From: Sphaerodactylus townsendi
Taxonomy: Eukaryota
Assembly: GCF_021028975.2 (NCBI RefSeq)
Contig: NC_059428.1
Span: 151,962,001 to 152,026,000, forward strand
Reading direction: 5' to 3'
DNA: 64,000 bases
The notes below the pieces were generated by a model, which did not search any database, was not told the origin of the DNA, and worked only from the letters and a program-made list of their open reading frames with translations. Both the position numbers and the translations under genes were made by a program. Shown here piece by piece: positions 23,501-63,700 of this stretch; the first letter of the stretch is position 1; every line of letters begins with the position of its first letter.

Positions 23501-25749
23501 CAGCTTATACCGGGCATATTTTAGGGTAAGCCGAAGTGATGTATTTAATAGCCATGAGTGTCCCACTCATGCGTAGACCAAAAACACCTCTTGACAGGAC
23601 CCCCAGGATTGTAGGGGAAAATGTCTTTTAAACATATATATTTTAAATCAAAATTGCACTTAACCACTGGAGGCGTTATGGGGGAAAAGGTGAGTGTTGG
23701 TAGAGTTAGGGGTTTAGGGAGAGGAAGAGAGTTGACAAGAGAGGAGACAGAAAAAGACAGCCACAGACAGGACAAGAGAAGAGAGAGAGAGAGAAGTTAG
23801 CAAAGCCAGTGGGGATGGCAAGCCAGGGGTTAAAATGGGAGCCAGAAAGGGAACTGGGCATAGCAGGGGGAAGGGGCAAAGAGACCCAGTTGGAAGAGAG
23901 GGAAGACAGGCAGAAAGATGGACCAATTGCCAACAAGGCAGAGGTGGGAGGAATGAGATTCTTGCCCCCGCCCCCTTCTTCTTATCTTCTATCATTCAAG
24001 TGTGGGCATTCAAGATAAGATAGCCACATAGCAGTTAAGACACAATAACACTTATTTAAAATGTAAAAGTACATTTTGAACAGTCAATTAATTAAATATC
24101 TAGGAAAGATCACCAGCCCAAGCTGAAAAGACAGAAATGCTGCATTTCTGCAGAACTGCTTGGACTGCTTGGACAGCATTTCTGCAGAACTGCTTGGACA
24201 GCATGGGGAGAGGGGGCAGGGCACAGGCTTCTGCCTGAATCTCCCCAAAAGATCAGCATTTACTCACTTTCGACCATATTTGGTAGCTGAAACAATAAGT
24301 AATAATCTTTGCAAGCAGTCAATGGTTTCGTTCCCAAAATCCTGATTTTGGAAGAGGCCTGTGATCCGAGAAGTGAATTTTTTCAGTTCTTCATCCTGGA
24401 TTTTCCTAATGAGGAAGAACATGGGATTGTTGTTTGTTTTTTATTAATTAAACAAGCACTAGCAACAAAAATTAAGAAAGGATACAAAATCCCAATTGTT
24501 CTGCAATTGGCAAACGTGTGGCATAGATTTTTGATTAGCAGATTTCAGGTAGTGGAATAAGGAAAGAACGCCTGAGGTGTTGGGGATCCAAGATGAATCT
24601 GCATTGTGGTTCAGGAGAAAGCAACTCTGTAGAGTCTTGCACCTTCTCAGTTTCATTATGAAACTCTATTAGTGTTGGAGCAATCAAAACCCAGGACATA
24701 TCGGGATTTTGAAAGGCAGATGAATAAAGCTTTTCAACTAAAAAATTGGGAGTGAAAGCAGCTTTGTAAAGGGGAGGGAGGGGGAAAGAAACAGAGTAAT
24801 GCAACCCCAACTTGCTTTCAGTGTGGTGGTGGTGGGGAAATTGAAATTCCATGCCCGTGGCAAAAGTCATGGCCATTTTCAGAAGGTTCCTGAGCATATG
24901 GAAGAATCTTTTCAGATTTCAGCTCTCAGGTATCAGAACCCTGCAACTTCACTGTGAACCCAATTACGCCAAAATTATGGCAGGAAATCATTGGAATTTT
25001 TTTTGTATGACAAGCCAAAAACAAAAGGTTTGGATACTTTTGCATGCACACGGCATTGTTCCATTTGGTCTTGATCAGAAGTATGTGGATTGTACAGTTG
25101 TACTTGAGATTTTTCCCAGAGATTTTTTTCAAGCTGTCACAGCAGCCAGGATGGTGCAGGGCTGTTGGACTGAGATCTGAGAGATGCAGTTTAAAACCCC
25201 TACTCTGTCATGAGATCCCCAGGCTGTTTCTGGGACCCGTCCCTTTCAGTGTCTGTCAGCCTGCTGCACAGGGTTGTGAGGCTACAAAACAGAAGGGCAG
25301 AAACAAGTGTGTCATAGCGAACACACAGATCCCGGCCGTGGCACTTTGTCTGAGCTTGATCTAACCAGGCAGTCCTTGTCATTCAGACAATTACACAACC
25401 ATACAATTAAACTTTTAGCTAGGGATGCCAGCTTCCAGATGGGACAACTCATTTCCAGACTGCAGGAATCAGATCCCCTGGAGAAGTGGATGGTTTGTAG
25501 GGGGGCTGTGTGGCATTGTACCCCACTGAGGTCCCCGTTCTCCCCAGACTTCATCCCGAAATCTCCAGGGGTTTCCCAGCCTGGATGTGTAAATTCTAAC
25601 GCTCCATCCCACACACAAACAGAATGGGTGCCAGTGCGAGCATGCAAGAATCATGCATTCCTTTCTCCAAGCAACCATCAAAAAGAGAATTTTATCTTCC
25701 TTTCCTACCTGGCCTGGTGCAGGAAACTCTCTGTCCCTGCGGTGTACAT
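11589..25749 (-). CDS. AP5Z1: AP-5 complex subunit zeta-1 (SPG48), complete, 17 coding exons, 809 aa
   Basis: Exons in transcription order: 25709-25749, 24268-24405, 22821-23007, 21967-22111, 20675-20784, 19781-19949, 18412-18552, 17467-17504, 17204-17366, 16676-16854, 16130-16272, 15772-15918, 15508-15619, 15197-15294, 14095-14227, 13186-13400, 11589-11859. Sum is 2430 nt, GT-AG introns, open frame. Peptides [51 protein letters not shown]...[17 protein letters not shown] and [15 protein letters not shown] match recalled AP5Z1. Confidence 0.96.
12160..12289. mobile_element. PIF/Harbinger-like MITE
   Basis: TIR GGCCCCTTCC...GGAAGGGGCC with 3-bp TSD TCT/TCT. Confidence 0.75.
12476..12623. mobile_element. 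Palindromic hAT (Charlie-like) MITE; partial relatives at about 31325-31421, 41020-41106, 44253-44368 and 56214-56275
   Basis: 148-bp near-perfect palindrome with TIR CAGGGGTAGGGAACC and 8-bp TSD GGCTATCC/GGCTATAC. Confidence 0.9.
12852..13132 (-). mobile_element. Squam3-type SINE
   Basis: Near full-length copy in an AP5Z1 intron. Confidence 0.85.
13694..14023 (-). mobile_element. Squam3-type SINE with GAA/GGA tail
   Basis: Full-length copy. Confidence 0.85.
17941..18239 (-). mobile_element. Squam3-type SINE
   Basis: Full-length copy. Confidence 0.85.
19305..19437 (+). mobile_element. Penelope-like pLTR fragment with a minimal hammerhead motif
   Basis: CCT-CTGAAGA-TGCC...GGT-GAAACGTT-AGG at 19343-19383. 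Confidence 0.7.
19531..19667. mobile_element. Non-autonomous hAT element (TIR CAGTAGTGGGATTCA)
   Basis: TIRs with a perfect 8-bp TSD CACCTGAC at 19523-19530 and 19668-19675. Confidence 0.9.
20290..20568 (-). mobile_element. Squam3-type SINE
   Basis: Diverged full-length copy. Confidence 0.8.
21119..21422 (-). mobile_element. Squam3-type SINE
   Basis: Full-length copy. Confidence 0.85.
23095..23290 (+). mobile_element. 5S rRNA-derived SINE (5S-Sauria-like); related minus-strand copies at about 12335-12475 and 50795-50940
   Basis: Head resembles 5S rRNA (GATCTTGGAGGCTAAGCAGGGTCAACCCTGGTTAG...GAAGACCACC), followed by a body TCTTGCCTTGAAAA...GGGGTCACCAT shared with the other copies. Confidence 0.6.
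23320..23452 (+). mobile_element. Penelope-like pLTR fragment with a minimal hammerhead motif; more decayed copies at about 28860-28965, 32105-32230, 38990-39090 and 56575-56730
   Basis: CCT-CTGAAGA-TGCC...GGC-GAAACGTT-AAG at 23354-23394. Confidence 0.7.
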
Positions 25750-27319
25750 CTTGCTCCCTTTCCCCACACCAAACTCTTGGGATTCACTAAGAGAGATACA
25801 CTTAGCTTCCCTGCCCCTCCTCCGATGAGTGGTTGCAGAGTCGAAAGTCGCCCGTGTAGAAATCTGATCCCTTCTCCGATGGTTCCAGTTGGAGCTGACA
25901 TGCAACCGTTTCCCTCCATTCTCATGGGCCAGTCCTCAACCAAAAGCTCTGCCAATGCTCAGAGACGCATTACTCTAAAATTGAGCACAAGGAAAATTGC
26001 CGAAGGGTTGTTTAGAGACTTCAGTGCAATATAACAGCATGTGTAAGAGAAACCCATGACAGTGTCAAAAATATTATATACCTTGGCCCCCAGTTTTTGA
26101 AGCCCTGGGCTTCAGCAAAGCAAGCTTATAGGTAAATCCAGCACTCCCTCCCGTTTCAATCTTCTTCCCACCCCTGGCTCACTGCCAATCCCAGAAGCAA
26201 ACGTTTGAGAAACTGGATGTTTTGTTTATTTGTTTGGAACTCTTATTGAGCAGGGGAAGGCAAATGAGTGTTTGTCAAGAACATGTTATTCTTGCATGAG
26301 AGATGCATTCTGTGAGTACATGCACAGGCATATTTAGTGGGTCCTTTATCACTAACAGTGGAATCCCTTTGCAAAAGGCACATTGGAATATGTGGTTCCA
26401 CGGGATATGTACATTTTATCAGCCCTCTGCCCATCCTGGCTGGTCTCGATTATGTCACCTGAACTGGCAGGCTTTGATACTGACCACTGTCAAACTCTTT
26501 TTCAGCTAAGCAACAAAATATTAAAGAGCACTGAATGTTTATATGCGGCCTTTGATTCTATGGATAAAAACAGACTTTGGGCAAAACAGGCTGGCACAAA
26601 CATAAACACTATTTCTTCTTCGTGAACTTCATCCCAACAGCTATGTTAAATTGAGGGTTCATCATCAGAGGATATCCCAGTTGCTGGAGGTGCGTGTGTG
26701 TAGCCATATTATAATAAATACTTTATTTTGGTCAGTGACTAATAATAACAAATAATAGTGACAATTGAGTGTACATTGGTTTTATGTTGAAGACCTGGGT
26801 GCAAATTGTATACAACTTTCTAACAACTGATCTCTGCCTGAGATAACCGTTGAACAAAATACGCATCTACTTAGGGCCTCACACAGAGAAGGTCCCACAG
26901 ATTTTCTTTCCCCAGTGCTGGATTTATCATGGACCATGGCACAATGTTGCAGCTGAACCAGGGCCATTAAAAAGGGGCCTCACAATAAATGAAAAGAAAA
27001 TTAATTATAGTACTGAAACGATTCATAATATATTTTAATTCTGTAAGTTAAAATGACATGTACATTCCAGGCAAGAAAGCAATGGAATAACAGGTGTTTT
27101 GTTTCATACAAATGATGATGTTTATTCATTAGAACGTGTATTTTACTGCTTACCATGGTTTTTTATTCCGAATTACATATTCAGTATATGGGAGCATGGC
27201 AACCTTTTCAGTGCTTAGGGACTCCAAAAGTCTTAATCCGGCCCTGCATCCAACACATACTCTCACCTCAGGCTAAGCTCCCCAAACCGGCACCCCACAG
27301 AGGGATTAATCCCAGGCTA

Positions 27320-27760
27320 AGCCCCACAATCCCACCTCAGGCCCTCACCTCAGACTAGGCCCCACAATCCCACCTCAGGCCCTCACCTCAGACTAGATCC
27401 CACAATCCCACCTCAAGCCCTCACCTCAGACTAGGCCCCCCAATCTCACCTCAGGCCCTCACTAGGCCCCCCAATCCCACCTCAGTCCCTCACCTCAGAC
27501 TAGGCCCCCCAATCCCACCTCAGTCCCTCACCTCAGACTAGGCCCCCCAATCCCACCTCAGGCCCTCACCTCAGACTAGGCCCCCCAATCCCACCTCAGG
27601 CCCTCACCTCAGACTAGGCCCCCCAATCCCACCTCAGGCCCTCACCTCAGACTAGGCCCCCCAATCCCACCTCAAGCCCTCACTAGGCCCCCCAATCCCA
27701 CCTCAGTCCCTCACCTCAGACTAGGCCCCCCAATCCCACCTCAGGCCCTCACCTCAGACT
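27320..27760. repeat. Minisatellite, 12 copies of a 38-bp unit (two copies shortened to 31 bp)
   Basis: Unit CCCCCCAATCCCACCTCAGGCCCTCACCTCAGACTAGG. AATC anchors at about 27328, 27366, 27404, 27442, 27473, 27511, 27549, 27587, 27625, 27663, 27694 and 27732. Confidence 0.95.
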
Positions 27761-28134
27761 AATACCTGCCCACTGGTTCTGAGGTACCCCAGACTAGGCA
27801 CCACAACCCCGCCCCTGCGACCAACAGTCACCTTGGCATGAGCCCCGTTTTGCCCCGCCCCGCCCCGCCCCGCCCCGCCGCCAGCAGCCGCCCACCTCGC
27901 TCTTCCTCCGCCCCTTGGCAGGGCCGTCGCCGGGCGGCGCTTGCTCGGAGGCCCGCCCGGCCTTTCCTGCTCCTGCTCGGTCAGTCTGGTGCTTCTGCCG
28001 CTGCTGCCGTTGCTGCTTTGACGGGCGGCGGAGGCCGGAGCCGGGCTGTGGCGGTGCGGCGAGGCCGGGGCGATCGGGGCCCGCCGGGCTCCTCCTCCTC
28101 CGGCGGCTGCTCGGGCTGCTTCTGCCTGGGCGGC

Positions 28135-35632
<7,498 letters not shown>

Positions 35633-39539: not shown

Positions 39540-42500
39540 CTAACCTAGGAATGTGGAGATGAAAACGCTGGTGTCCAAGTTGAGGGTGGCATGCCACCAG
39601 CGGTCTGGGAAGAATAGGACCTGCAGAGGGAAGAAGGTTGAAGGAAGGTGATTGGAGAAGGTGGGGTATGTTGGTTTTTACCTGTTACCTATCTGAGACC
39701 CGAGAGAGCTGCAAGTCATTCAGAAAAAAACAGCATTGAGCTAGATAGGACAATGCAGCAAGCAGCAGCTTTATACACTGGGGTCAAAACAAGGGGCGGT
39801 GTAGTGGTTAAGAAGAGCAAGGTGCACTCTAATCTGGAGAACCAGGTTTGATTCCCCGCTCTGCCGCTTGAGCTGTGGAGGCTTATCTGGTGAACCAGAT
39901 TAACCTGTGCAGTCCAACACATGCCAGCTGGGTGACCTTGGGCTAGTCACAGTTCTTCGGAGCTCTCTCAACCCCATCTACCTCCCAGGGTGTTTGTTGG
40001 GAGGCAGGGGGAGGGAAAGGAGATTGTAAGTCTCCTTGAGTCTCCTTGAAAAGGGCGGGGGGTATAAATCCAAACTTCTCCTCCTCTTCTTTTTGAGTAT
40101 AATTTTGAATCAAATTCAAAAATTGAAGCACTTGCCAAAGAAGTTCTATTCCATTCCTTCTCTAGCTTGCTAAGCTAAAATGCCATGTATGGCAATGCTG
40201 CAGGGTTTGTTTTTTTCAAGCCAATTTTTTGGTGGTTGCAAGAACTAGAACCATGCTGCTGAAACAAACCAGTAAACCAAACATGTTGCTGGGATGTCTG
40301 AGATGCTGAATTTTGCAAGGAAACCAAAGGGCATCTTAGCTCCCCAGGCAAGCAACCAGCTGCAGAAACACTTGAAAAAACATAGACCCCTTGCAAACAG
40401 TCTCTGTGGAACCTCTCCTCTATAGAGGAGATAACCAGGAAGGGAAGCATGGAATGGGTTTAAAGTGATTTACAAGAAGATACAACCAATACAGAATGAG
40501 TGTAATCCTTGGGGTTTAGAAGGAAAAGTGCTCTCTTAAGCACACCATCTCTCAAGCACGGGGACAATGTAGATCCTAAAACACTGATGTGATTTGATTC
40601 TGATGACTGAAGAAGAAGAGAAGGAGGAGGAGTTTCGATTTATACCCCACCTTTCTCTTCTGTAATGAGACTCAAAGGGACTTACAAGCTCGTTCCCCTT
40701 CCTCTCCCCACAACAGACACCTTGTGAAGTAGGTGAGGCTGAAAGATTTCGGAAAGGACTGTGACTAGCCCAAGGTCACCCAGCAGGAATGCAGGAGTGT
40801 GGAAACACATCTGGTTCAACAGATAAGAGTCCACTGTTCATGTGGAGGAGTGGGGAATCAAACCCAGTTGTCCAGGTTAGAGTCCACCTGCTCTTAACCA
40901 CTACACCACTTTGACAGTACCAGACAAAGCTCATGAACAGTCATTAAGGGCAGTCCTATATTTTAACACATAGTTTCATTAGTATGTTTCTCTCAGGGCT
41001 CAGGGAATTATAATTCCTGACAGCATGGCCAATTGGCCATGCTGGTAGGGGCTGATGGGAATTGTAGTTCCTGAACATCTGGAGAGCCGCAGGTTCCCTA
41101 CCCCTGGTCTAGCATCAAACATGAAGGCAGAAGTAGGTTGCTGAATGCTTTAAAATTCTTAAAAATATATGCTTCTGTTGTTTGACAACAGCCACAGTTA
41201 CCTCTCCAGGGTGAATGGTGCATTCAATTGGCCTCTCCCAGGGTGGCAGAAAAGGGTAGGTGTCCAGCAGCCAAGACAGAGTAGTCTTGTTGGGGTGGAA
41301 CTCTGGTGTTTTCTCCGGGGGATACAGAAACCAGTGCTGCCGAGGGAGTGCAGAGATGGAAGGAATCATAAATCTCCTAAGACCCAGGCAGGAGCACTTG
41401 CCCCCCAGCCCCAGGATACTATCTAAACCACAATGAGACATCACCCACAAGACTAAACCAGTCCAGAAGTCTCAAACAAGAGATGCAGCCAAGCCACAGG
41501 AGCAGCAAACTGATCTACCCAGGACTGTTCAGCAATCTAGATACAAAGACAGCCCCAAATCTGACCAAAGAAGAAAAAGAGGAGTTTGGATTTATACCCC
41601 ACCTTTCTCTCCTGTAAGGAGACTCAAGACGGCTTACAAGCTCCTTTCCCTTCCTCTCTCCTCAACAGACACCTTGTGAGGTAGGTGGGGCTGAGAGAAT
41701 CCAGAGAGAACTGTGACTAGCCCAAGGTCACCCAGCCTCTGCCAGTCAGGTGGAGGAGTAGCGAATCAAACCCGGTTCTCCAGATTAGAATTCGCCTGCT
41801 CTTAACCACCACACCATGCTGGCTCTTAACCACTACACCACCACAGGAAAGCCCTAATCAGCCCTCCCAAGAGAAATTATCCTGTAATAACTAAGGATGC
41901 TGAAAACGGCACCCTTCGAATCACAGCTGCAATTTTGGAAAAACAACAGGTTGGCCACTTCTGTGAGAACCAGGCTCCCGTCTCCATCTAAAGTACCTTT
42001 TGACCAAAGATCACCTCGGAGTATCCCGGACCATGCCAATGAAAAGGCACACCAGAGCCAGACCCTGTAAAAGATGAAGAGGAGATGAAATGAGAAATTC
42101 CACGGAATCGTCACTTCAGTCCGCTGCAAAAATAAGGGGTGAAAAGAATGATATCCTAAAGATTTAACAGATTTATCAAAACTTTTTTGGGGGGTTAAAT
42201 TTTTCCTTTTGTCAGATGCACAAAATGAATTCTTAGTCAATAGATTAAGCAATGGGTGGGAGGAGTGGAGCTGTATATCTTGGGAAACTGAGGCCCCTTC
42301 CGCACTTGCAGAATAATGCACTTTCAATCCACTTTCACAATTGTTTGAAAGTGGATTTTGCTATTCTGCACAGCTTCAAAGTGCATTCAAAGTGGATTGA
42401 AAGTGCATTGTTCTGGAAGGGGCCTGAGTGCCAAAATTAATCTTCTCAAAAGATCTGGAAGCTGTCTTTCAATGAAAAGGTTTAACTATCAATTGAGTCT

Positions 42501-45500
42501 GATTATTGCATGGATCAGAGACAAGACACCCAAAAAGACACCCTCAGCGTCCCTGCCCTCCCACTCCCTTGATACACTGGAACTCACCAGCAATCCCAAA
42601 ACTGTACGCTCCGATAGTGCCTGGAAGCTGGAACGGAGGGGGCCGGTACTTCTGGAAGAGAGGACCCCACTCAGTGAAGTTATTGTCCCCAAAGAAGTAC
42701 AGTGTTTCTGTGGAGAATGAGACGACATTAACCCTTTTGTAGGTGTTCTTTGCCACCTTAAAGATCAACAAATGAGATCCAATCAGATGTTGGGTTTAAA
42801 GTGTAAGAGCAGAACTTGGGAGACTCCAGTTCAAATGCCTGCACTACCAAGAGAGCTCACTGGGAGGCCTACCTCACAGGGTTGAGGTGAGGACAAAACA
42901 GGACAATGGAGAATGCTCTTCACCACTACACCACACTGGCTCTAGAAACAGCATCATTTGAGAAGAAGGAATGGCCAACTCACCACTCCCCAGAGAAGCT
43001 GTGTCCTGAGGTTCCAGCAATTGCTCCACATAATCCTGGAAGCGCAGGTCAACTGGAATGGGAACAGGGAGTGCTCAGCGAACACAGCAGCCGCTGAATC
43101 TCCCCCAAAGGCCGAGAGGCACTCTCAGTGACCCTTTTTTATCTTTGGAATCACTGGATTTCTCAGCCACTGTAAAGAATATTGTCTACAGTTGTTCCAC
43201 AGGCTGTAGTTCCAGGTGCTTATTTTCCTAATTCCTGGGAGAGTTGAAATTGACCAGGCCAGATTACAAGGGGCTTGTAGTCCCGTCAATTTCACTCTTC
43301 GGGGAAATAAAATAAATTATGTTCTTTATATAAATGTTCTTTATAGTAAATCCCAGAAGTGCTCATCCTTTCATTCACTTGGGGGCAAATGTCTTTGCAG
43401 ACTACTTGCCCCCTCCCAATCTCGTTGCCACCAGGAAAAGGACTGTCATGACCCCCCAAATGGCGTTCAACAGAACCCTGGTCTCTAAACATAGAGCCGC
43501 CACATCAATTGACAGACCCTGGCTGAACTTGCCTATCACTGCTAAATCCCTGCCCTCACCTTTGCGATAGGAATGGGTGTTGGCGGTGCTCAGGCGAACC
43601 AGCCGATCTCCGAACGTGGCCAACAGGTTCTCCTTAGTGCAATAAGTCTGAAATTCCTGCAAGCACAGAAGGAGATACAGGAATAGAATAAAGATTGGAA
43701 GAAAATGACCTCCAACTGTCAAATCCTGGGGGCTGCCAATAGCCAGGGAGGGAAGGCTTGGGGCTCCATGTAAGTTTCAGAGGGAAATCTGACTGCTTGC
43801 TGTTGGGACACAGGATACTACATTTGACTTCTCATCTGGCTTAGCAATAGCTTCGCAGCTACTTCTGGAGAGGAAGTGCTCTGAAAGAGGTTTAGTCTAC
43901 TTATATCCCATCTAGGTACATACTCTTGGCACAGGTTGTAGAATAGTGGGTAGTCACCAAGTAATGGTGGGTAGTCACCAAATACTGATGGTTAAAAGAC
44001 AGATTGGAAAGTTTTCTATTTTTTATTAAAGAAGTGTGGTGTTTTTTTTTAAAGTTTCCTTTCTTGGGTCACCTGCAGATCCAATAACATCCTCAAAGAC
44101 AGTGACACCCACACATCAAAGCTGGATCTCAGTGGGCGTCGCAGGTGGAAGATCCCTGGTTTGGATTGTGCCACTTCAAGTAGCAGATGCCGGGAAAGCC
44201 CTTTCCCCGCCCAAGACCTTGGAAAACTTCTGCTGGCTGGAACATACTAGATCAGGGATGGCCAACCTATGGTGCTCCAGATGTTCATGGACTACAATTC
44301 CCATCAGCCCCTGCAAGCATGGTCAATTGGTTCATGGGCATCTGGAGAACCATAGGTTGGCCACCCCATACAAGATAGACCAATGGTGTGCCTCGATACA
44401 AGGGAGTTTCATATGTCCATACCAAACCACCAGGTTGCTCACCCCTGCCGGTCCCAGCCTCATTTAACCTAAAACGACAGTATTGGGATACTTACCGTAT
44501 TGTCGGTTATTCCTTGGAGAATAACTGGTCTGGAGAAGGCATACCTGGGAATTTAAGAAGAAATCCACAGTGCTATATAATACATGACAACAGTGAATTC
44601 CTAACTTGTGCTCCTTCGCAGCGCTCAGCCCTCCTGTCCTCTAGAGGGCATGTGTACACTGCCACTTTCAGGTAGAGGCATGAGTGCTAACCAGGTGGGG
44701 GTACACGTGGGGACACCTACAGAGCATTGTTTTTAATCCAAACCTTCATCCAAAGAGCTCAGGGTGACATTTACTGGCATCTCCCTGCCTAACTTACCAC
44801 ACAAAAGTACTTGTGAGGACAACATGCAGAACCAGATGCACTACCTTAAGCGCCTTGAAAGAAGAAGAAGAAGAAGAAGAAGAAGAAGAAGAAGAAGAAG
44901 AAGAAGAAGAGTTGGATTTATATCCCCCCTTTCTCTCCTGCAATGAGACTCAAACTCCTTTCCCTTCCCCCCTCACAACAAGCACCCGTGAGGTAGGTGG
45001 GGCTGAGAGAGCTCCAAAGAACTGTGACTAGCCCAAGGTCACCCAGGTGGCGTGTGTGGGAGTGCACAAGCTAATCTGAATTCCCCAGATAAGCCTCCAC
45101 AGCTCAGGTGGCAGAGCGGGGAATCAAACCCAGTTCCTCCAGATTTGGGCGTCTTAATTGATAGTTCCATGGGAATGTCAACTCAATGTATGGCAGCTGT
45201 GAAAAAGGCAAACTTCCATGCTAGGAAAGGATAGGATAAGGAAAAAGGAATAAAACTGCAAAGCTAGTCAGAACTCTGCAAAGACATTAGTCCTCACACT
45301 TATAAAGCACTGTGTGGGTGCACACACTCTGGAGAGTACTGTGTTCAAGGCCCCACAATTAAGCATCCTCAAAAAGACATCAAGAGATAGGAAAAAGCAG
45401 AGAAGGGCAACGAGGATGATTGAGGGACTGGAGCAACCTTCCTTATGAGGAAAGGCTGCATTTCTGGGGACATCAATTTAGTTTGGAGAGGAGACGCCCT

Positions 45501-47274
45501 TGAGCAGGGCAGATGATGTGAAGCACACATAAAATTATGCATGGGGTAGATAAATGCTGACAGAGGAAATTTTCTCTCTCTTTCTCACAGATACTAGAAC
45601 CAGGGGCATTCAGTGAAAAATGCTGTGGAAGAATTAGAACTAATACCCCAAGGAGGAAAGCACTTCTTCAATAAAAAAAGGGGGATTGGTACTTGGAATA
45701 TGCTGCCACAGGAGGTGGTGATGGGCTACATTAAGCACTAACTCTGATAGCTTCTTGCAAGGGCTTGACAGATTTTATGGAGGAGAAGTCAATTTCTTTA
45801 TGGCTACAAAAATCTTGATACTCTTTGATTTGGATTACAAGATCCTTGTATAATAGCAAGGGGCAACTGTCTAAATGGAGAGACGGTTAACAGTCCCCAT
45901 GATTCTTACCCAATAAGCATACTCGGCCCCAGCTGATAAATAACAGATACACAGGACAAGATGGACTCTGAGTTCGATAAGTCGGCTTGTTCTGGAAGTG
46001 GTTCTATTAGAGTACACCTCTAGGGCAACCTTCCCAACTTAAACCTGGTCAATGAACTCTGGGCATTATAGGTGATGCACTGTGGGCGCATCTCTCTTTC
46101 CTTCCACTGAGCACATGCAAGAGTAAGTGCATTTCTACTTCCAGTATAGCTGGAGGTGCTTGCCAGGGCAGAGATGTGGAGAGCACATATTGGTGATACA
46201 ACAAGCTTTACCCTCATAGATTAAAAATCCAGTGTGTGTGGAGGTCAAACATACCCCAAAAGCAGTAACCTAAAACAGGGAAGGAAAACACATCTGAAAT
46301 ACAGCCTGGTGAACTTTGGTTTGTTTTTGGTAGTCATGAAGCTTTGATACGTTAAGGCCAGTTAATCTAATTTATGCCTAAATAACATTTAAAAAAACCC
46401 TGCAGTCTGGACTATACAAATTTGGAACAGCAGGTGGAAGATGAGGGGGGCTTAAAATGTTCTCTTCTAGGAAAAAGAGGAATTTCCTGCAACCTAAAAC
46501 AGGGAAGGAAAACACATCTGAAAGGAGAAGGCTCGGGGTAAAACCTTCTTTATCAGTCAAGGCAGCTTGATAATGCTAAGGCCAGTTTTTACTTTATGCG
46601 CCTAAGTAATTTTGTAAAAAACTGTAAACTGGGCACTATTCAAATTCATGGAACTACAGGTGGAAGATGAGGGGCTACAAGTTTCCCTCTTCATACAAGA
46701 GAATTCCCTGCATGGGTGAAAACCAGAAAGGAGAAGGCTCGGGGTAAAACCTTCTTTATCACAATGATGTTTTTACTTAGCAAGTAATTTTGTAAAAAAA
46801 TTGTAAACTGGCACATTCATTCATGAACCACAGACAAGTTTCCCTCTTCATACATTAATGGCTGTAATGAGGAAGGCTACACAGAATGAGATTTCTGAGA
46901 CCGGGCCTTCTAGGCCAGCCAAGCAGAGAGTGAAAACCGGCCTTTCTAGGCTCGGGAGGGGACAGGCATAGCAGCTCTATGGCGCACTGAACCAGAACCG
47001 GAGAGATCCCAAGTTCAAATCTGCTCTGTGCCACAAAGCTTGCTGGTTGATGTCGGGCCAGCCAATCTCTCTCAGTGCCACATAGCTCAAAGAGCTGTCG
47101 AAAGGATAACAGGCATAGAGAAGTTGGGCTTTCTGGGGAGAAAAGATGGGATGAAACCAACTTTTGGTCCACTTACCAGCCTCCATCTGATTCCAGGGAT
47201 GCCAAAACTCCAGGAAATACCAGGAAATTCTTCAATATCAGCAACAACAGGAAGAATGGGTTTCTCAGGCCCAT
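39540..47274 (-). CDS. JMJD8: JmjC domain-containing protein 8, signal-peptide bearing; exon 2 unreadable in frame in this assembly
   Basis: Exons 47177-47274 (MGLRNPFFLLLLILKNFLVFPGVLASLESDGGW), about 46045-46165 (garbled), 44496-44544 (YAFSRPVILQGITDNT), 43560-43656, 42984-43052, 42588-42707 (TLYFFGDNNFTEW), 41997-42064 (GSGVPFHWHGPGYSEV), 41202-41336 and 39540-39620 (VLFFPDRWWHATLNLDTSVFISTFLG*). Confidence 0.93.
39794..40090 (+). mobile_element. Squam3-type SINE
   Basis: Full-length copy in the last JMJD8 intron. Confidence 0.85.
40609..40910 (-). mobile_element. Squam3-type SINE
   Basis: Full-length copy, inverted relative to 39794-40090. Confidence 0.85.
41569..41845 (-). mobile_element. 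Squam3-type SINE with an internal deletion
   Basis: Body matches the other copies; the head end is duplicated. Confidence 0.8.
42292..42424. mobile_element. PIF/Harbinger-like MITE, same family as 12160-12289
   Basis: TIR GGCCCCTTCC with 3-bp TSD TGA/TGA. Confidence 0.75.
44857..45143 (-). mobile_element. Squam3-type SINE with a long (GAA)n tail; head truncated at a junction with CR1
   Basis: About 17 GAA repeats at 44857-44910; abrupt switch to CR1-like sequence at about 45143. Confidence 0.85.
45144..45850 (+). mobile_element. CR1 LINE 3' fragment, heavily indel-corrupted
   Basis: Recognisable CR1 motifs (CAAAVKKAN, PYEERL, WNMLPQEVV) broken by many small insertions. Confidence 0.7.
46265..46855. 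repeat. About 2.5-3 imperfect copies of a roughly 230-bp unit
   Basis: AACCTAAAACAGGGAAGGAAAACACATCTGAAA at about 46267 and 46491; AAAGGAGAAGGCTCGGGGTAAAACCTTCTTTATCA at about 46521 and 46727; the copies differ mostly by indels. Confidence 0.75.
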
Positions 47275-48486
47275 TTGTTCCAAGATCCTACATGATGGGA
47301 TAACACAAAAGGATAACTTTCAAGTACAGGTAACAACGATCACCAAAAAGAGATATCTTCTTGCATAAAAGGCTTCAAAACCCAAGTGCTCAGCCGCATC
47401 TGAAAATTTATAGATATTGTCTGGAACTCTCTGATAAAATATCTGTACATCAACCCAGCCAATATTAGTCACGTTGCAAATAATTTAGAAAATACAAACT
47501 CTATTATGCTGCTTTTTTTCTTTCTTTTCATTACGTGTAGGTATACATATAATATGCATGTATTGTAATAGATTAGTACAGAAAATTTACTATATTTCTA
47601 GATTTTGAAGATATTGTAACCCAAATATTCTTTTTTCTTCTTCTATTTCTTTTTTGCGGATAAAGAAAACACCCGCTCTTGGCTTAAATGGCGTACTTAG
47701 AAATCAGCGTAACAAAGGAGAAGTCTCTTTTCTCAAAATTTGCACTTTTTCTTGCAATATCAACATGAACGATAATGTATTTTCTTTTAACTTTTTTCAA
47801 TAAAGTATTAAAAAAATTGCAGAGCTTGGCAGAGGGAGGAAGGTTAGACAGTAGAGACAAGGGATGTATGATACTTGAATCTGGATAAAGTTGTCTTCTG
47901 GGGAAGAGACAAGCCTGGCCAAGACTAACAAACGCAACGTCAAGCAAGGAAAGAACCAATAATAATATAGATACTGTATATTGATGAACACTGTAACATC
48001 AACAATATTCTTCTAAACCGTATATCTATAGTGTGCAATTAAAGCAATAGTAGTGACAGAACTAGTACATAATAGAGTACAGGTGCAAATCATGAACGCG
48101 CAGCCATATTATGAAGACAACCCAAAAGTCCGGCAGGTGTAAACGATGAATGATTAAACCACAGAATCTTCTTCCAAGAAGTCTTATGTTTTGGAAGTGG
48201 TGACTGGCAAGGGATGGCTGACAGTACTCACAAACGGTCTGCAATATCAACCGGCTTGTAAACCCTCAAAAAAGGTGCAAATGTACTTATAACCAAGAAG
48301 ACTGTAAATTCCAACAGCAAAACACCTGCACGCTGAAAAGCGTTTTTGACAAGAATTTTATGTTCATTATGTTTTCATTATGTTCATTATGTTCTGTATG
48401 TTCTGTAAATATGAATTTCTGTATGTTCGGTATGTTCTGTAAATATGAATTATGAAAACATAATGAACATAATGAAAAGAACACCC

Positions 48487-48905
48487 ATAGAATCATAGAG
48501 TTGGAAAAGACCCCAAGGGCCATCAAGTCCAACTCCCTGCAATGCAGGAACACATAATCAAAGCACTCCTGACATATGGCCATCCAGCCTCCCTTTAAAA
48601 ACCTTCAAAAAAGAAGACTCCACCACTCTCCGAGGTAGTGCATTCCACTGTCGAACGGCCCTTACCGTCATGTGGAATCCCTTTTCCTTCACCTTGAACC
48701 CATTACTCCTGGTTCCAGTCTCTGGAGCAGCAGAAAACAAGCTTGCTCCCTCACTGAAATGACATCCCTTCAAATATCTAAACATGGTTATCATGTCCCC
48801 CCTTAACCTTCGCTTCTCCAGACTAAACATCCCCAGCTCCCTAAGTCTCTCCTCGTAGGGCATAAATTCCAGACCTTTTACCATTTTTGTTGACCTCTTC
48901 TGGAC
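48487..48905 (-). mobile_element. CR1 LINE 3' end
   Basis: ORF 48558-48884 encodes YEERLRELGMFSLEKRRLRGDMI...VRQWNALP; ATTCTATG terminal repeats. Confidence 0.88.
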
Positions 48906-49255: not shown

Positions 49256-49356
49256 GCAAATTTAGGACATAGATTAGAGAATCTGCTGGCAAATTTAGGA
49301 CATAGATCAGAGAATCTGCTGGCAAATTTAGGACATAGATCAGAGAATCTGCTGGC
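49256..49356. repeat. 33-bp tandem repeat, three copies
   Basis: Unit GCAAATTTAGGACATAGATCAGAGAATCTGCTG. Confidence 0.9.
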
Positions 49357-49578
49357 ACAGAAGGCAGACAGATCAACTGGAGCCCAGAACTACATAGAGC
49401 AGTTCTCCCTAATCTCCAGTGAAAGAAGATGCTGGCCATACCTTTATCCACACCCACAGGCATTCCCAGCTTTGCATCTTAGGCTGTTTTACTCACTGGA
49501 TCTGAGTAGGGGATGGTTTCGGAGGATTAGGGAGACCTTCAAGTTTCCTGCAGCAACCCCACTCTACCCCCCCCCCTC

Positions 49579-52150: not shown

Positions 52151-55100
52151 TCACACCGGTAGTGTGCTTGTGGATGAGGAATATTTGACCTCATCCCTTT
52201 GGGATGACCCCGCGTAATTGTCCCTTCTGGCAGCGAATTCTCCGACGTTGGGCAGCCCTGGCACCACGCAGCAGCTCAGAGCACTGCGGTAGATGCTCAT
52301 GTCGTGGGCGTCGTACCACTCGTCCGTTTTCTCATCGTAACACTCAACGTTGAATGTCGTCGTGAAGCCATTGAATCCGCCCACCACGAACAGCAGGTCG
52401 TCCACCACTTCGATGCCAAAATTGCTCCGGGGGTTGAACATGGTCGGGATGGTCCTCCAGGTGTTGGCGATTGGATTGTAAGCTTCTGCGCTCCGAAGGC
52501 GGTTGGCGCCATCAAATCCTCCCACCTGGAGACTCCAAAAAGACAGGGGAGTTGGTTGGCTTAGGAAAGCCGCTAGACCACTGAAGAATCAGTCCGTACC
52601 ACTAAAAACTTCCCCTCTATCAGTAAGGCACTTTATTTGTCACCATGAATGGTTCTTTGGTAGCCTTGCTCTGTTCAAAACTGCCACCTCGGCCTCTTGC
52701 AGTTCTTTCCCATTTGTTTCACCTGTTCTCCAAAAAGCTCAGAGCTTGGCACACACTCAGCACATACACTGTTTTTAGCCTCAATTAAATGTACGGTACT
52801 TCTGGTTTTATGCCTAATAAAGGTTTTTGGATTGGATTGGATTGGATTAGCCTCAAATACTGGAACCTCACATAAGGGATCTCATATATCAGGGGAAAAC
52901 CCATGTCCTCCTCAAGCCCTGGAGAGACATCAAGAGTCAGATCAGTCAGTAACGAGCTGAAGAAACCATGAACTCCAGGGCTTCTCAGGCCGCAATATGC
53001 CAACTACCTCTCTAGAAAAACCTTCTAGTTATTCTGCGTTTATCGCTGTTCACACACCACAGCTCAGCTGGCCTTGTGTTTACACCCAACTAAAGAAGGA
53101 GCAAACGCCATTCTCACCAATTTACTGCGGAAGAGTTACCACCAACGGCGCCTGCCCAAAGTCCAGTAAGAAGTCTGGTCCTACCGCGTAGACGTGCTCT
53201 CCGTAGGCAATGACGCCGATGCCGCTTCGCCTGCTTCTCATGGGCGCGATCAAACTCCACTGATCTACTTTAGCGTCGTACACTTCGGCTGTGAACAGGC
53301 ACTCGTTCCCGTTGAACCCACCACAGATGTAGACCTTTTTTTTTTCATTTTGAAGCCAAGCAAGGAGGAAAGACAGAAAATTACAGCGCTGTGAAGAATC
53401 AGAAAGCGCAAAGGAGTCGACTGCTACAGCATTGCCTTAAAGCAGTGATGGTGAACCTTTTCGAGACCGAATGTTCAAATTGCAACCCAAAACCCACTTA
53501 TTTATCACAAAGTGCCAACATGGCAATTTAACCTGAATACTGAGGTTTTAGTTTAGAAAAAACGGTTGGCTCCGAGGCATGTGTTACTTGGGAGTAAACT
53601 TGGTGAAGCAACCGTGCAACGCTTCGAATGTGTGAATCACGACCCTAGGAGGGTTTACTCAGAAGCAAGGCCAGTGTGTGTGGGGGGGATGATTTTCCAC
53701 TCCCCCTACATGATGAACTCTGTGTACGTGTGCCATAGGTTCGCCACCACTGCCTTAAGGTGATGTCTGATCAAAGCCTGAGATTAGACAAAAGAAATCT
53801 GGCAGGCATCAAGGTATATGTTTTAATTCTGTTGTAAATTTTTTAAAAATATCACTTGTTATCTTCTTGTCCAGGAAAATCTATAGGCCATCATAAGACT
53901 GGATAATTAAAGGGACTCGGCATGAAAATCTGGGATTGGGCCAAAGATCTAATTGTGTGGGTATATGAGAGTGACAGGGCCTTTTCAGTGGCAGACCCAC
54001 AGTTTTGGAACAACATGCACCCAGCCCCCGCACTCTTGGTCTCTAGGAAGCAGCTGAAGCCTGTTTGATTCAAAGCAGCATCCGATTAGTTCTTCCTATC
54101 AGTAGTTTCGAATGATTGATTTTAACTAGTAGTTTTCACGTACTGCAATGTACTGTACTTGGGGCTACCCTTGAAGGGTGTTTGCAAGCTGTGACTAGTG
54201 CAGAATGACGTTGCTGTGAACACACCGGCTACCAAGCTGCTCCTGAACCCAATGTAAGGTTTTGGTTTCGACTGACTTGGGAATGAGATATCTGAAGGAC
54301 CATCTTCCCCTCTATGTTCCTGCCCATGAATTAACACAGGGAGAGGTCTCTCTTGACTGCCAAACAATAAAACAAGCTTGTTTGGTGGTACACGAGACAG
54401 GGCCTTCTCAGTGTCAGCCCCAAAAGACGTGGCCAATGGTGTCAAAGCATGAGATAGGGCAGCCCTGCACACACACTTCCACTGGACCCTTGCTCATGAC
54501 CGGGTTACCTTTCCATACAGGGTGGTGGCGCTTGCATCGCTCCTCTGCTCATGCATGGGGGCAATTAGTGTCCACTGGTTGGTCTCGGGCTCGTACCTCT
54601 CGGCCGTGTTGAGACGCACGTAGCCGTCAAAGCCACCCATGGCGTAGATGAAGTTGTCGAGGACGGTGACGCTCACGTAGCAGCGCCGGGAGTGCATGGG
54701 GGCCACTTGGTGCCACGTCTTCTTGACAGGCTCAAACCTTTTGACGCTGTTGAAATAGTCCACGCTGTCGAAGCCGCCGATGATATAAACATAGCCCTTT
54801 AAGTAGGCGGAGCCATGGTACGCTCGGGGACTCTCCTGCTGACACGTGACGTTCACCCAGCGGTCAGCACGGGCGTCGTACGTTTCAATGGCATTTGTGG
54901 GGCTCCCACCACTCCAACCGCCGATGGCGAACAAGATGGCGTACGGCAGTCGGGGCCTCGTCAGTGGGTTGGTGAAGTCGGAACTCGACGGGCCATTCAT
55001 ATTGAGGTCGTACATGGCTTTCAGGGCATCAATGATGATAGGTTTGCACTCCTCGCTGTCTTTCACGTAGTCGTGCATTTTGACATTGTTCATGAAATAT

Positions 55101-57984
55101 TCGGCATGCATCAAAGCCAGGCGGACCTACAGGAAGAGAGAGTGATAGTTGCAAACGAGGGAGGACGAGCACAAAGCACAGCTGGAATATGGAACATGGG
55201 TATGTAAGTAGATGTAGGCAGAGTGGTGTCGTGGTTAAGAGCAGGTGCAGTCTAATCTGGAGAACCGGGTTTGATTCCCCACTCTGTCACTTGAGCTGTG
55301 GAGGCTTATCTGGTGAGCCAGATTAGCTTGTGCACTCCGACACATGCCAGCTGGGTGACCTTGGACGAGTCACAGTTCTTCGGAGCTCTTTCAGCCCCCA
55401 CCTACCTCACAGGGCGTTTGTTGTGGGGGTGGAAGGGGAAGGAGATTGTAAGCCCCTTTGAGTATCCTTACAGGAGAGAAAGGGGGGATATAAATCCAAC
55501 ACTGCTTCTTCAAAAAATGTCAGACCTTCCATGTTAATCCCTCCTCACCTTGCCTTGCTCAGACATGTAAGGCCGCCCAAATAGTTGCAATGGATAAAAG
55601 ACAATATCTTGATCCCTCCCAATCTCGCTTGTATCCAAATCTCCGCCTTCACCATGAGCAGCTAAGTGAACGCTACTCCCTGTACTCACAGTGTGTCAGA
55701 TCTTAAGTCTGAAGTCAATAAACAGGCACTTGATGCTTGATCAGAACACTTTATTGAATGCAACGGGTACCTGGCTTTTGCCAAGCCAGTTCTGCTGGGC
55801 TACGGAAATGCAGTTACATTTATCCATTTAGGTTTCCCGCCATAAAGCCCCCTCCTGTTTTCCCACGGTGTATGAGAACCACACAACAGAAAGAAAGATA
55901 TTTGGGAGTCGAGCATCTCAAGGACAGTGTCCAGCCACCTGCCGCCTCCCCCGTCAAGGAAGGCGGCAGAGTTGTCTCTAGTTAAACTACAGTTGCAAGC
56001 ATCAAAGGAAAACAAAAGAACAGAAAAGATCCATTAACATATCAGAGGTGAAGACAGCTTCCCCCTCTGCATAGGCAGGTGTGAATTCTTGCACCTAGTC
56101 TCCATAATTGATGTCAAGCCCCATCCTGACACACTGACTGCAAAGACCACACAGACCAAGGGATAAGGGTGAGGTCTCAGTGTCTTGCTGAGATCATAAA
56201 TCATCCTACAGTCCAGGGGCGTCCAACTCTGGCTCTCCAGATGTGCATGGACAATGATGTCCAACAGCCTCTGTGAGCCTTCAAGCATTCAAGAGTCACT
56301 GTAGTGCAGTAGTTAGAATGCTGACAAGGATCTTGAAGACCCAGGTTCAAATTCCCACGGTTCCACAGATGGTATGGTATAGTAATTTAATTTCTATACC
56401 ACCCTCCCTGGGAGGGCTCAGGGAGGTAATCTTAGGCCAGTCTAACCTACCTCAGAGAGCTGTTGTGAGGATAAAAATGGAGCCAGGGAGAATGTTGTAA
56501 ACCATTTTGAAGTGTGGGAAGTGGGGAATGAAGTGAATAAATAAAAACATTCTTGTAAAGCTGGCTGGGAAGTGGCTATTGTGGGTTTTCCAGTCTGTGT
56601 GGTCTTGTGCCAGCCACAGAAGCAGGCAAAACATTAGAACCAAAAAGTACCAGACCACAGCCACACAGCCTGAAAAATCCACAAAGTCCAGCTGATTCCA
56701 GCTGTGAAAGTCTTCGACAATACATTGGCTGGAAAGATTCAACCCGCAGGCCACAAGCAAGGAAAATTGAGCCAGTAGGAAGCACTAACCTTGGGTAGTA
56801 GAAATGCCATGTGCTGTTTCCTGTTCTGGGGATCGTGAGTGATCCACTTGAGGATGGCTTCGAAAACCGCGTCTTCCTGCTTCACGTTGAGTTCGTCCTT
56901 CTCAATGATGTCTTGAAACTCACTGACCGAGAGCTCCAGGAATTCAGTTGACGCTTTCACCATCTCCTCGAAGTTGTGCAGGATGAACATGTAGGCTGTC
57001 TGCCGCAGATCGGGGCAGTAGTAGTATTCCGTGAACTTACAGATGCCGATACAATTCTCCAGGCACAGCTGGCTTTTCATGAAGTCGGAACAAGCCCTGA
57101 CGATGCCCATCACGTTGAACTGGTCAGCGGCCACGAAGAGCCTCTCCACGTTATCCACGGTGATAGGCACTGTCCTTGTGTAGGCATACTCAATTATGAG
57201 CTTCATCATGTCTGGAGTGATGCCAGGGATATTATAAACCCTCTTCTCTGTATTGTTCCAGCTACTGGTAAAGAGAGCTCTGGAGGGGGAAAGGACACAA
57301 CTGCTGCTCATGGTTTTTGGTCACCAGGAGATTCAGGGCAGGCAGAAGCAGTGATTACTTTGCATTGGTGATTACTTTGCATCAATTCACAGTTACTACT
57401 TTGCATCAATTCACTTTAGGAATATGCCTCCATGAAATGTGAGGAAGATCTATAGGCTTAGATGGCTTTAAAGGGGGATTAGACAAATTTGCAGAGGGCA
57501 GACCAACTAAAGGGAATCCTCCCACCCCCAATGCAAAGGGAAGGATTTCTAAATGCTGGACAAACCATGTGGCAGGGGGAAATTGTTGCGTTTCAAGCTT
57601 ACTGGGCTTTCGGGGAGCTGAGCAGACCTTCAGCCAGATCCAGCATGGCTCTTATGTTCCCCGAGCTCATTTCCTCTGTACAGGTGACCGGAGGAAGTCA
57701 ATGGGCCTGCTAAGTCCCTCCCCCAAGATGCCAATCCCCATTCCTAACCACTCTCATCTTTGGTGCTCCATCTCTTGAGTACTCCGGGGCACTGACCGAA
57801 AATAGGAGCTGCAGCTGCAGAGGATGTTCTTGTGGGCGTTGAACTCGCAGCCGTTGACTTTGATGATCACGTCGCAGAGTTTCCCTTCCAGCCGCAGCTC
57901 GTTGAAGACCGTACAAGCCATGGCACTCATCTTCCTCTCCATGTGGCAGTGGGAGTACCCCGCTGAAGCAGAGGCATCGTCCAT
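52151..57984 (-). CDS. KLHL10: Kelch-like protein 10 (BTB-BACK-Kelch CUL3 adaptor), complete, 5 exons, 606 aa
   Basis: Exons 57797-57984, 56790-57279, 54509-55126, 53185-53334 and 52151-52525, totalling 1821 nt. Peptides HMERKMSAMACTVFNELRLEGKLCDV, LTRPRLPYAILFAIGGWSGGSPTNAIE and RDEVKYSSSTSTLPV* are near-identical to recalled mammalian KLHL10. Confidence 0.96.
53443..53752. mobile_element. Non-autonomous hAT element (TIR CAGTGRTGGYGAACCT)
   Basis: TIRs with 8-bp TSD CCTTAAAG/CCTTAAGG, in KLHL10 intron 3. Confidence 0.88.
55220..55510 (+). mobile_element. Squam3-type SINE
   Basis: Full-length copy in KLHL10 intron 2. Confidence 0.85.
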
Positions 57985-58560
57985 TTTTTTTTCGAGGTGG
58001 GGGGAGGGCAGAAGAAAGAGCGGCCGGGCTTTCCACTTAACCCTCCCCTTGGGGAAAAAAACTGTGATTGGTTCAGAGGTTCCAGAACCCTTCTCATAAT
58101 GGGATCCCCCTTGACAATGACCACCTTCTAGAATCTCAGCTGCCCTGTTCAGAGGGCCTTGCTCAGAGTAGACAACTGCGAGTGAGATTTGGATACCCTT
58201 TCCCATGCGTTTAAATAAAAATCACATCCTCGCAAAGGCAAATTGTTCTGTGGCAAACTGTGGTGCACAAGGGTTGCAGTGCAGCCACGAGTTTTGTCAA
58301 AAATACTGAGAAGCCGTTGCACGCAGCCCACGCCCTTGGTGTGCCGTATATCAAGTTAAGAGTGGGCCCAAACATAAATTTTGGCGCAACTGCTTTCATT
58401 TGCACTGAGCAATTCAGAACCTTTTAAATGTGATTAGATATTGCTCAAATGCTGGAATAGTGGTTTTGAAAATCCAGTGTATTCCCTTGTCTCTCTCAAA
58501 CATAGCCACTGAATAGGTACAGAGTACTGAAGGGGTACGGGCAAGGCTACTTTCTGGATA

Positions 58561-60726: not shown

Positions 60727-63700
60727 TCAGGTGTACTCGCAGAGATGGCCGCATCCTGCCGGGCAGTGTGAGCTGGTCTCTAACCATTTCATGATGTGTT
60801 GCAGATGCCCGCCATGACTGCAGCCCTGGCACCACACGAACAGGCCCTTCACCACATGGTGGCACACGGCACACATGCTGGCACACTGCCGACACCTGAA
60901 GAGAGACCATAGGATGAATCAAATGAACAGAGAGACTGGGCCGCATCCTCCTTCAGATACAGCTCAGATTCCAGAACAATCAGCAAGACTGCCAGGGTCA
61001 CTGGGGAAGCAAAGGGAACCGGAGGCAATCTAACCAGTGAGGTCCCATCCGAAGTAATGCAGAAGAGAAGAACAAGAATTTGGATTTATACCTTGCTTTT
61101 CTCTTCTGTAAGAGGACTCGAGGTGGTTTACAAACTTCTTTCTCCCCTGCCCCCCTTCCCACAACAGACACCTTGTGAGATCAGTGGGGCTAAGAGAGTT
61201 CTGAAGGAACTGTGGCTAGCCCAAAGTCACCCAGCAGGAATCTAAGAGTGGAGAAAGAAATCTGGTTTACTAGATAAGAGTCTGCCACTCAGGTGGAGGA
61301 GTGGGGAATCAAACCTGGTTCTCCAGATTAGAGTGCACCTGCTCTTAACCACTACGCCATGCTGGCTCTCTGCTGAGCAACTTCACATATCCAGGGGACT
61401 ATGAAACTAGGCCTCTTTTCCCAGACATCTCACCTGTCACAAATCCAGCCCTTGTTGCTCATGGGCCGCTTACAATTGCTGCAGTTGATGTGAAGCGTGG
61501 TGGAAGCCTGGTTGAGGCAGTTGATGGCTCTGCACGTGCTCAGTTTGATCACCTCATTGGAGATGTTCCACAGCTGGAAGCGCTGTAGCAGGTCAATGTA
61601 GGAAGTGTACCAGTGTTCCTGCAGAATTAAGGCAAGCCTACGGTCATTTTTCCGCCTCTAAAAATGTCCCTCCATCTCCCTCTTGGGACTCAAGGCTTCC
61701 TGCTATAGTGACTTTTCAAACACATCAAACACAGAATGTACAACCTGTAATTAATTTATGCACTATAACATAGGTTTGACACATTCATTCCCTGGGGGTT
61801 AAAAATGTAGAATTGTAGAATCATAGAGCTGGAAGAGACCATAAAGGCCATCCAGTCCAACACCCTGTTATGCAGGAATAAACAATCAAAGCACTCTTGA
61901 CAGATGGCCATCCAGCCTCTGTGTAAAAACCTCCAAAGGAATCCACCACACTCTGAGACAGCATATTCCACTATCAAACAGCCTACACTGACAGAAAGTT
62001 GTTCCTGATGTTTAGGTGGATCTCTTCTCCTATACCTTGAATCCACTGCTCCTTGTCCTAGTTTCTAGAGCAGCAGAAAACAAGCTTGCTCCCTCTTCAA
62101 CATGACCTCCCTTCAAATATGTAAACATGGCTATCACGTCACCCCTCAACTTACTCATCTCCAGATTAAACATACCCAGCTCCCTAAGCCATTCCTCATA
62201 GGCACTGATTCGTTCGTTTCCTCATCCACCCTGCAGGATATCTAAATCTTCCTGTTTCTAATGAAACAAGTGGTTTTCCACAGCAGGGAGCCTACAGGAG
62301 TCTATGTGGAACATAATTCAAAACCAAAACACAACACCTATTACAAATTGAAGATATATATATAACTCCCTATATATAACTCCCTAACTCCCTATAACTC
62401 CGTATATACAGGGCTAAAGAGGATTTATTTTCAGATTACTTATAAAATTTAATTGGATGAATTAATTTTAGGGCTGCATAATTATTATTGTAATGAATTT
62501 ATGTTTTTTTAGGATGTGTCTTTTTTCTTGGAATTGGGATTCCAATAACAATAAACTATTACTCTACTGTATATAAAGAGAGAGATTTAAAAAGAAATAA
62601 GCAGGAGCCAGAGTGCGATGCTTTACTAGGCTTCCTCAAGAGTCCACCTCTCCTCTGGATGGGGAAAGAGAAGAAGAAAGGATCGCATTCCCATCATACT
62701 GCAGATCTGGCAGGCTGGACTTGGTCCACAGAAAGACGCGACCAAGGTTCCCTGAACCTGAAGTTTGAACAAATTCAGCATTTTTTTTAATAGGATGGAT
62801 TTCATTTGCATAGAAAATAATCTTTGGATTTGTGCTGTGAAAAAGCTCCACACACGACTAGGTCAGAAAGACCTTTGGTCCTGTTCTTTCAAATCCACCG
62901 CAGAGGAACCTGGCTGAAATTCAAACACCTTTAAAAGTCATTCTTACAGGTTCAGTTGCTTTACTGCATGCGACTGTTACCCTGCTGTTATTTTTTAAGT
63001 TGTTATTTTGCTCGTAATCGTATCATATCTCCACTGTTATTCAATTGCCTTAAATACACCAGTCATGGATGGTCCTTTTTATTCTCTTTTAGCTTTTATA
63101 CTTTTTCTTCACATCCTCTCTAATAATTATATTTGGTCACTGACCATAAATAAAGAAGAAGAAGAAGAAGAAGAAGAAGAAGAAGAAGAAGAAGAAGAGG
63201 AGGAGGAGGAGGAGTAGTTTGGATTTATATCCCCCCTTTCTCTCCTGTAGGAGACTCAAAGGGGCTTACAATCTCCTTGCCCTTCCCCCCTCACAACAAA
63301 CACCCTGTGAGGTGGGTGGGGCTGAGAGAGCTCCGAGAAGCTGTGACTAGCCCAAGGTCACCCAGCTGGCGTGTGTGGGAATGTACAGGCTAACCTGAAT
63401 TCCCCAGATAAGCCTCCACAGCTCAGGCGGCAGAGCTGGGAATCAAACCCGGTTCCTCCAGATTAGATACACGAGCTCTTAACCTCCTACACCACTGCTG
63501 CTCCCTCTTCTCCTCTAATAATTGCATTTCAAAAATAAAGTCCCTCTTCTTCTCCTCTGATAATTGCATTTCAAAAATCTACCTATTTCAGTTAAGCTAC
63601 TTGGTCTGTGTCCTCCTTACTGCTTTAGTACCATCCACTGGGCTAATCTACAAAGGAGAGGCACCCCAAATGCTTGTGTCCACACCTTCCCATCTAAGGT

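Follow-up and report, generated by a model that had tools for sequence, protein, structure and literature searches.

In the gecko Sphaerodactylus townsendi an intact, intron-bearing KLHL10 gene, which in mice serves sperm maturation, lies between WDR24 and JMJD8, and not between KLHL11 and NT5C3B, with which it is linked in most of the non-squamates compared. The arrangement was read in a 64,000-nucleotide stretch free of any N (G000:C4:151962001-152026000, where G000 is the gecko assembly; hereafter the window). A single DNA-level move of KLHL10, with its introns, into the WDR24-JMJD8 gap in the squamate ancestor, possibly in that of all lepidosaurs, probably accounts for it. The ancestral status of the mammalian position, and with it the polarity and approximate age of the move, is well supported. 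The relocation is real, squamate-wide and intron-retaining; the kind of event is already known, and a functional or phenotypic change is not part of the claim.

Linkage of KLHL10 in squamates and other vertebrates

Linkage was scored by proxy from a protein collection, using equal size of the encoding contigs and accession order, and counted by hand among the matches listed. KLHL10 was on the JMJD8 contig in all nine decidable squamates (G000, Heteronotia, Paroedura, Rhineura, Phrynocephalus, Python, Ahaetulla, Protobothrops and Notechis, spanning geckos, an amphisbaenian, an agamid and snakes) and in none of 21 other vertebrates. Phrynocephalus, Protobothrops and Notechis have consecutive accessions for the two genes, another three squamates have them no more than four apart, and the Python scaffold that carries both is only 191 kb long. 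Linkage of KLHL10 to KLHL11/NT5C3B, by a shared contig or a consecutive accession, was found in 23 of 26 non-squamates (6 turtles, 2 birds, rat, coelacanth, 2 frogs and 11 cartilaginous fishes) and in none of 10 squamates, among them the skink Lerista, the cordylid Hemicordylus and Podarcis muralis. Consecutive KLHL10 and KLHL11 accessions were seen in Gopherus, Caretta, Macrochelys and several sharks. Species with shared rows were dropped (Trachemys and Carcharodon from the KLHL11 test; Natator, Mauremys and Pan from the JMJD8 test; Lacerta agilis from both), and Alligator and the monotremes had one of the genes only among the matches listed.

An earlier note on this stretch had held that either position might be the derived one. 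Outgroup linkage and the gene tree described below decide for the mammalian position as ancestral and the squamate position as derived. The arrangement is no gecko novelty, as that note had entertained, because it is common to geckos, an amphisbaenian, an agamid and snakes; nor is it general in non-mammalian vertebrates, since no non-squamate of the 21 had KLHL10 with JMJD8.

The old site and copy number in the gecko genome

The block in which KLHL10 would be expected is present in G000 on C15 (4.77-4.88 Mb), where ACLY, KLHL11, NT5C3B and a multi-domain FKBP gene keep their human orientation. We take the last of these to be FKBP10, from its position. No KLHL10 remnant was found by nhmmer with the five exons in the 13,291 bases from KLHL11 to the first matched NT5C3B exon (best E 2.5), and tblastn with six KLHL10 proteins against the donor site, which is free of N, matched only KLHL11, at ∼25%. 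Human KLHL10 lies within this block (PMC9689318), and a table in PMC10776626 gives the chicken chr27 order as P3H4, FKBP10, NT5C3B, KLHL10, KLHL11, acl.

Searches of the whole assembly gave one perfect match each. With exon 3, 10 matches were obtained at E ≤ 1e-10 (one at 100%, nine at 30-48%), and with exon 2, 28 matches at E ≤ 1e-8 (one at 100%, 27 at 23-40%). No second KLHL10 was found by either exon among the best-scoring candidates, the other matches being other KLHL genes; a 537-amino-acid frame (L006, 30%) considered as a second copy was rejected as another KLHL. The relocation or duplication proposed earlier is thus narrowed to a relocation, a standing duplication being contradicted by the absence of a second copy in these searches, including at the KLHL11/ACLY site on C15, where only KLHL11 matched. 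Gene order is kept in the donor and acceptor blocks alike and KLHL10 is the single gene displaced, which bears out the earlier proposal of a DNA-level move of a single gene.

Two further observations concern related loci. A paralogous block in G000 (C11:22.76-22.84 Mb) groups another UMPH-1 gene with an FKBP gene of several domains and a Kelch gene, probably NT5C3A-FKBP9-KBTBD2, and no KLHL10-like gene was found there. In several snakes more than one KLHL11 was listed on one contig of 138-155 Mb (three locus tags in Naja, three in Vipera, three in Ahaetulla, two in Crotalus), which suggests tandem expansion at the site that KLHL10 left; this region belongs to the snake Z.

Orthology and intron positions

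The best matches of the gecko protein are named KLHL10 (81-97% identity) and are far from KLHL11 and other KLHLs. Identity was 96-97% to squamates, 92.9% to Caretta, 88-89% to mammals and 83.8% to the coelacanth; against KLHL11 it was 26.5%. A tree of 36 proteins unites the ten squamates in a clade (100/100) within sauropsids (100/100) within amniotes (100/97), following the species tree; its rows were picked from the matches, and divergent bird, frog and fish paralogues were mostly left out. Thirteen residues are fixed in 8 squamate KLHL10 records and absent from 10 others.

All four intron positions of the window match isoform breakpoints outside squamates, at residues 63, 226/227, 432 and 482 (primates, whale, hamster and sharks). 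Gorilla and tarsier isoforms match from residue 63, a whale fragment ends at 227, and residues 433-482 are exactly skipped in isoforms of gibbon, hamster and two sharks. The earlier conclusion that the gene is not a retrocopy is upheld by these four introns at ancestral positions. Compared with vertebrate KLHL10, a BTB-BACK-Kelch adaptor of CUL3 (human 17q21, chicken chr27), the gecko gene has the same domains and the same intron positions and is an orthologue by the tree. The conserved synteny of KLHL10 with KLHL11 and NT5C3B is not found in this gecko, which does not affect orthology by descent.

The nesting in sauropsids and the matching introns indicate that squamate KLHL10 derives from the gene next to KLHL11 and took its introns along when it moved, after the split of squamates from turtles and archosaurs. 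As a separate observation, neognath birds, frogs and teleosts have KLHL10-like proteins of greater divergence (57-86% over exon 3), frequently more than two in one species, and a slow-evolving KLHL10 is kept in squamates, turtles, palaeognaths, mammals and sharks.

Gene model and new neighborhood

KLHL10 has five coding exons on the minus strand (window positions 52151-57984), as in mouse (PMC8568611), with an open frame of 606 amino acids and introns of 517, 1663, 1174 and 659 nt, all four GT-AG (Table 1). There are two open splice combinations, and the 606-amino-acid version is found letter for letter inside the named gecko record P0162, in which Pfam recognizes BTB, BACK and five Kelch_1 stretches. 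The distance from the WDR24 stop (60729-60727) to the KLHL10 ATG is 2,743 bases, and 4,877 bases separate the KLHL10 stop from the ATG of JMJD8 (near 47274), which lies downstream; the minus strand carries all three genes. The complete, co-oriented five-exon gene described from the letters alone is thereby confirmed.

The order on C4 is RADIL(+), AP5Z1(-), STUB1(+), JMJD8(-), KLHL10(-), WDR24(-), FBXL16(-). JMJD8 and WDR24 were named by protein matches and AP5Z1 by Pfam; the names RADIL, STUB1 and FBXL16 are our tentative assignments from Pfam domains (RA, TPR and LRR). Apart from the inserted KLHL10, the acceptor block STUB1-JMJD8-WDR24-FBXL16 keeps the human order. A table in PMC6813133 gives the human row as STUB1, JMJD8, WDR24, FBXL16, with a JMJD8-WDR24 gap of 262 bases; the WDR24 stop and the JMJD8 ATG are here ∼13 kb apart. 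The separation of JMJD8 from its mammalian upstream context, raised in the earlier note, could conceivably affect that gene, but a GC box remains upstream of it at 49885. The human gene orders given in the earlier note agree with this table and with that of PMC9689318.

Table 1. Features of the KLHL10 region, in window coordinates.
Feature	Position	Strand	Remarks
WDR24 penultimate coding exon	61434-61621	-	phase-2 donor; would read on in frame into KLHL10 exon 2
WDR24 last coding exon and stop	60727-60895	-	protein match
Stretch upstream of the conserved KLHL10 ATG	57985-58206	-	CCAAT box at 58071; 74-amino-acid extension in P0162
KLHL10 coding exon 1	57797-57984	-	188 nt; first part of BTB; the next intron is phase 2
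KLHL10 exon 2	56790-57279	-	490 nt; remainder of BTB, most of BACK
KLHL10 exon 3	54509-55126	-	618 nt; end of BACK, first Kelch repeats
KLHL10 exon 4	53185-53334	-	150 nt; codes for precisely the 50 residues absent from isoforms of gibbon, hamster and two sharks
KLHL10 exon 5 with stop codon	52151-52525	-	375 nt
Candidate polyadenylation signal AATAAA	52128-52133	-	directly past the KLHL10 stop; another at 51668
JMJD8 coding region	39543-47274	-	protein match; downstream neighbor

P0162 consists of the 606 amino acids of the window plus a 74-amino-acid N-terminal extension that begins at an upstream ATG. The stretch that encodes this extension is likely promoter or 5′ untranslated region. Within it, 58020-58100 includes the CCAAT box and gives a translated motif similar to one by which the colubrid record P0133 is extended at its N terminus; this part is likely a conserved promoter element annotated as coding. 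Simple pattern scans, which are weak evidence either way, found neither a cAMP response element upstream of KLHL10 nor, in the gaps on its two sides, any strict ZNF143 match.

Proposed route of the move and alternative explanations

The most likely route would be a copy followed by loss of the donor. The WDR24-JMJD8 gap would first have received a duplicate of a genomic segment of at least 6 kb, and the original beside KLHL11 would then have been deleted or have decayed. A copy-first order is favored because male fertility depends on KLHL10 and mice are haploinsufficient for it. The gene is reported to be testis-specific and haploinsufficient in mice and its product to be a partner of CUL3 (PMC8568611), and in medaka it is also reported as testis-associated, with some expression in the ovary (PMC12592704). 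By analogy with work in mouse and fly, the relocated gene would still encode a CUL3 substrate adaptor of late spermatids, expressed from its own promoter. Among the sequencing runs listed, exon 3 was contained at 0.91-1.00 in four runs of unstated kind, which may be the source material, and at 0.06-0.11 in fourteen, and no clear RNA run had more than a small share of it; none of these is taken as evidence. No transposon ends or target-site duplications were found around KLHL10, only copies of dispersed repeats and short tandem repeats.

Several points weigh against the proposed single ancient move. Gene order was read directly in G000 only, and in the other species by proxy. The accession proxy is imperfect (the two genes are 108 accessions apart in Heteronotia and ∼700 in Rhineura), the Python, Lerista and Pantherophis assemblies look scaffold-level, and skinks and cordylids contribute only by absence of KLHL10 from the KLHL11 contig. 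The counts leave out anguimorphs, dibamids, tuatara, crocodilians and monotremes as undecidable. The KLHL10-KLHL11 link is missing in Acipenser ruthenus (scaffolds of ∼1.1 Mb), Rhinophrynus and Metynnis; the last two match at 73-74%, possibly as paralogues. Neither a breakpoint nor a flanking repeat nor co-moved sequence can still be recognized, and nothing of the kind is expected at such an age. In Eublepharis macularius, KLHL11 (P0322) and JMJD8 (P0404) are on one 81,085,323-base contig, through a fusion confined to that lineage or as a vestige of ancient linkage, so that a move within one chromosome is conceivable.

With the same polarity and age, KLHL10 could instead have changed place without ever existing in two copies, through cut-and-paste or through nested inversions of an ancestral chromosome on which both regions lay. 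The shared Eublepharis contig and the lack of a remnant at the donor site speak for this route, as does the AP5Z1-STUB1 junction 20-30 kb away, which suggests that the neighborhood was rearranged compared with human. A remnant is, however, not expected by either route after so long; the order and orientation of both flanking blocks are kept, so one gene alone moved; and JMJD8 and KLHL11 are on different contigs in the other squamates listing both (e.g., Pogona, Sceloporus, Candoia, Vipera and Heteronotia). We consider this route unlikely. An RNA route, by retroposition of an unspliced pre-mRNA or by a processed copy that regained introns, would explain why exactly one transcription unit moved, with AATAAA directly past the stop codon, and testis transcripts are established as common templates for retroposition. 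All four introns are nevertheless at ancestral positions, the regain of four introns is implausible and intron-keeping retroposition is rare, which makes an RNA intermediate highly improbable.

The extra divergent KLHL10-like proteins of frogs, birds and teleosts could point to two ancient paralogues, one per locus, lost reciprocally in squamates and in other vertebrates. Squamate KLHL10 is, however, nearer to that of turtle (93%) than to that of mammal (89%) or coelacanth (84%), no non-squamate of the 21 has a KLHL10 on the JMJD8 contig among the matches listed, and the nesting of the squamate proteins in sauropsids (100/100) largely refutes such a history, to which we give hardly any credence. 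An assembly misjoin or a change private to geckos is very unlikely: KLHL10 and JMJD8 are linked in eight other named squamate assemblies, including the 191-kb Python scaffold, the donor site is empty and without N, and a protein record of an amphisbaenian, P0003, joins exons of WDR24 and KLHL10.

A joined WDR24-KLHL10 record and possible read-through

P0003 (Rhineura floridana, named WDR24 isoform X4) consists of WDR24 residues 641-736 joined to KLHL10 residues 63-606. This junction places KLHL10 downstream of WDR24 and on the same strand in Rhineura, independently of the linkage proxies. RefSeq files KLHL10 under WDR24 in this species (P0003 and P0131), with one isoform spliced in frame into KLHL10 exon 2. 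The last WDR24 intron and the first KLHL10 intron, read by hand, are both phase 2, so that the Rhineura junction (61434 to 57279) would be in frame in the gecko window too.

It could be proposed that squamates use a spliced WDR24-KLHL10 read-through, in which the C-terminal end of a GATOR2 subunit is swapped for a BACK-Kelch substrate-binding module. If true, lizards and snakes would have gained a chimeric protein or a shared transcription unit without counterpart in other vertebrates. Both parts were present in only 1 of 733 fetched proteins and in none of 150 WDR24 representatives (clustered libraries), among which there were no full-length WDR24-KLHL10 fusions either, and the P0003 model keeps only positions 38-107 of the 110 of BTB, which counts against such use. 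Squamate-wide use is thus very doubtful, and low-level read-through caught by one annotation is the likelier source of P0003.

Comparison with known relocations and significance

The KLHL10 relocation resembles that of marmoset autosomal UBA1 (PMC4446799), in which a whole gene with its introns is found at a new place and no donor copy is left. The UBA1 move was from the Y, in one species and with ∼68 kb of recognizable flank, whereas KLHL10 moved alone, without recognizable flank, in a change common to a whole order and with no sex chromosome implicated. The testis retrogenes RPS4 and EIF2S3 share with KLHL10 a new chromosome and a link to the germ line (PMC4446799), but they are without introns and KLHL10 keeps all four.

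The move is implicit in public annotations. No published report of it, or of the position of KLHL10 in squamates, was found in a search from which supplements and most subscription papers were outside, so that squamate synteny tables could hold it; the available parts of PMC10146909 and PMC11477308 contain nothing on the position of KLHL10.

The relocation matters because (i) it is a clean example of a rare genomic change, sets squamates apart, or lepidosaurs should tuatara have it too, and breaks a block otherwise held from sharks to humans; (ii) it indicates that a dosage-sensitive fertility gene can leave its neighborhood with its introns, and offers a natural experiment on how compact and portable the KLHL10 spermatid promoter might be; and (iii) it carries a warning for annotation, as squamate KLHL10 will escape orthology calls based on synteny and the gene is already filed under WDR24 in one RefSeq annotation.

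Other features of the window

AP5Z1(-) and STUB1(+) are arranged head to head (11600-28400), with a GC-rich, CpG-rich stretch between them at 27.8-28.5 kb and RADIL beyond. Human AP5Z1/RADIL are on 7p22 and STUB1 on 16p13, and we take the AP5Z1-STUB1 contact to be a second synteny junction near KLHL10. The region upstream of JMJD8 has a 33-base tandem repeat (∼3 copies) and an AT-rich imperfect inverted repeat (49256-49375 and 48358-48481), together with a presumably CR1-like fragment at ∼48490-48900.

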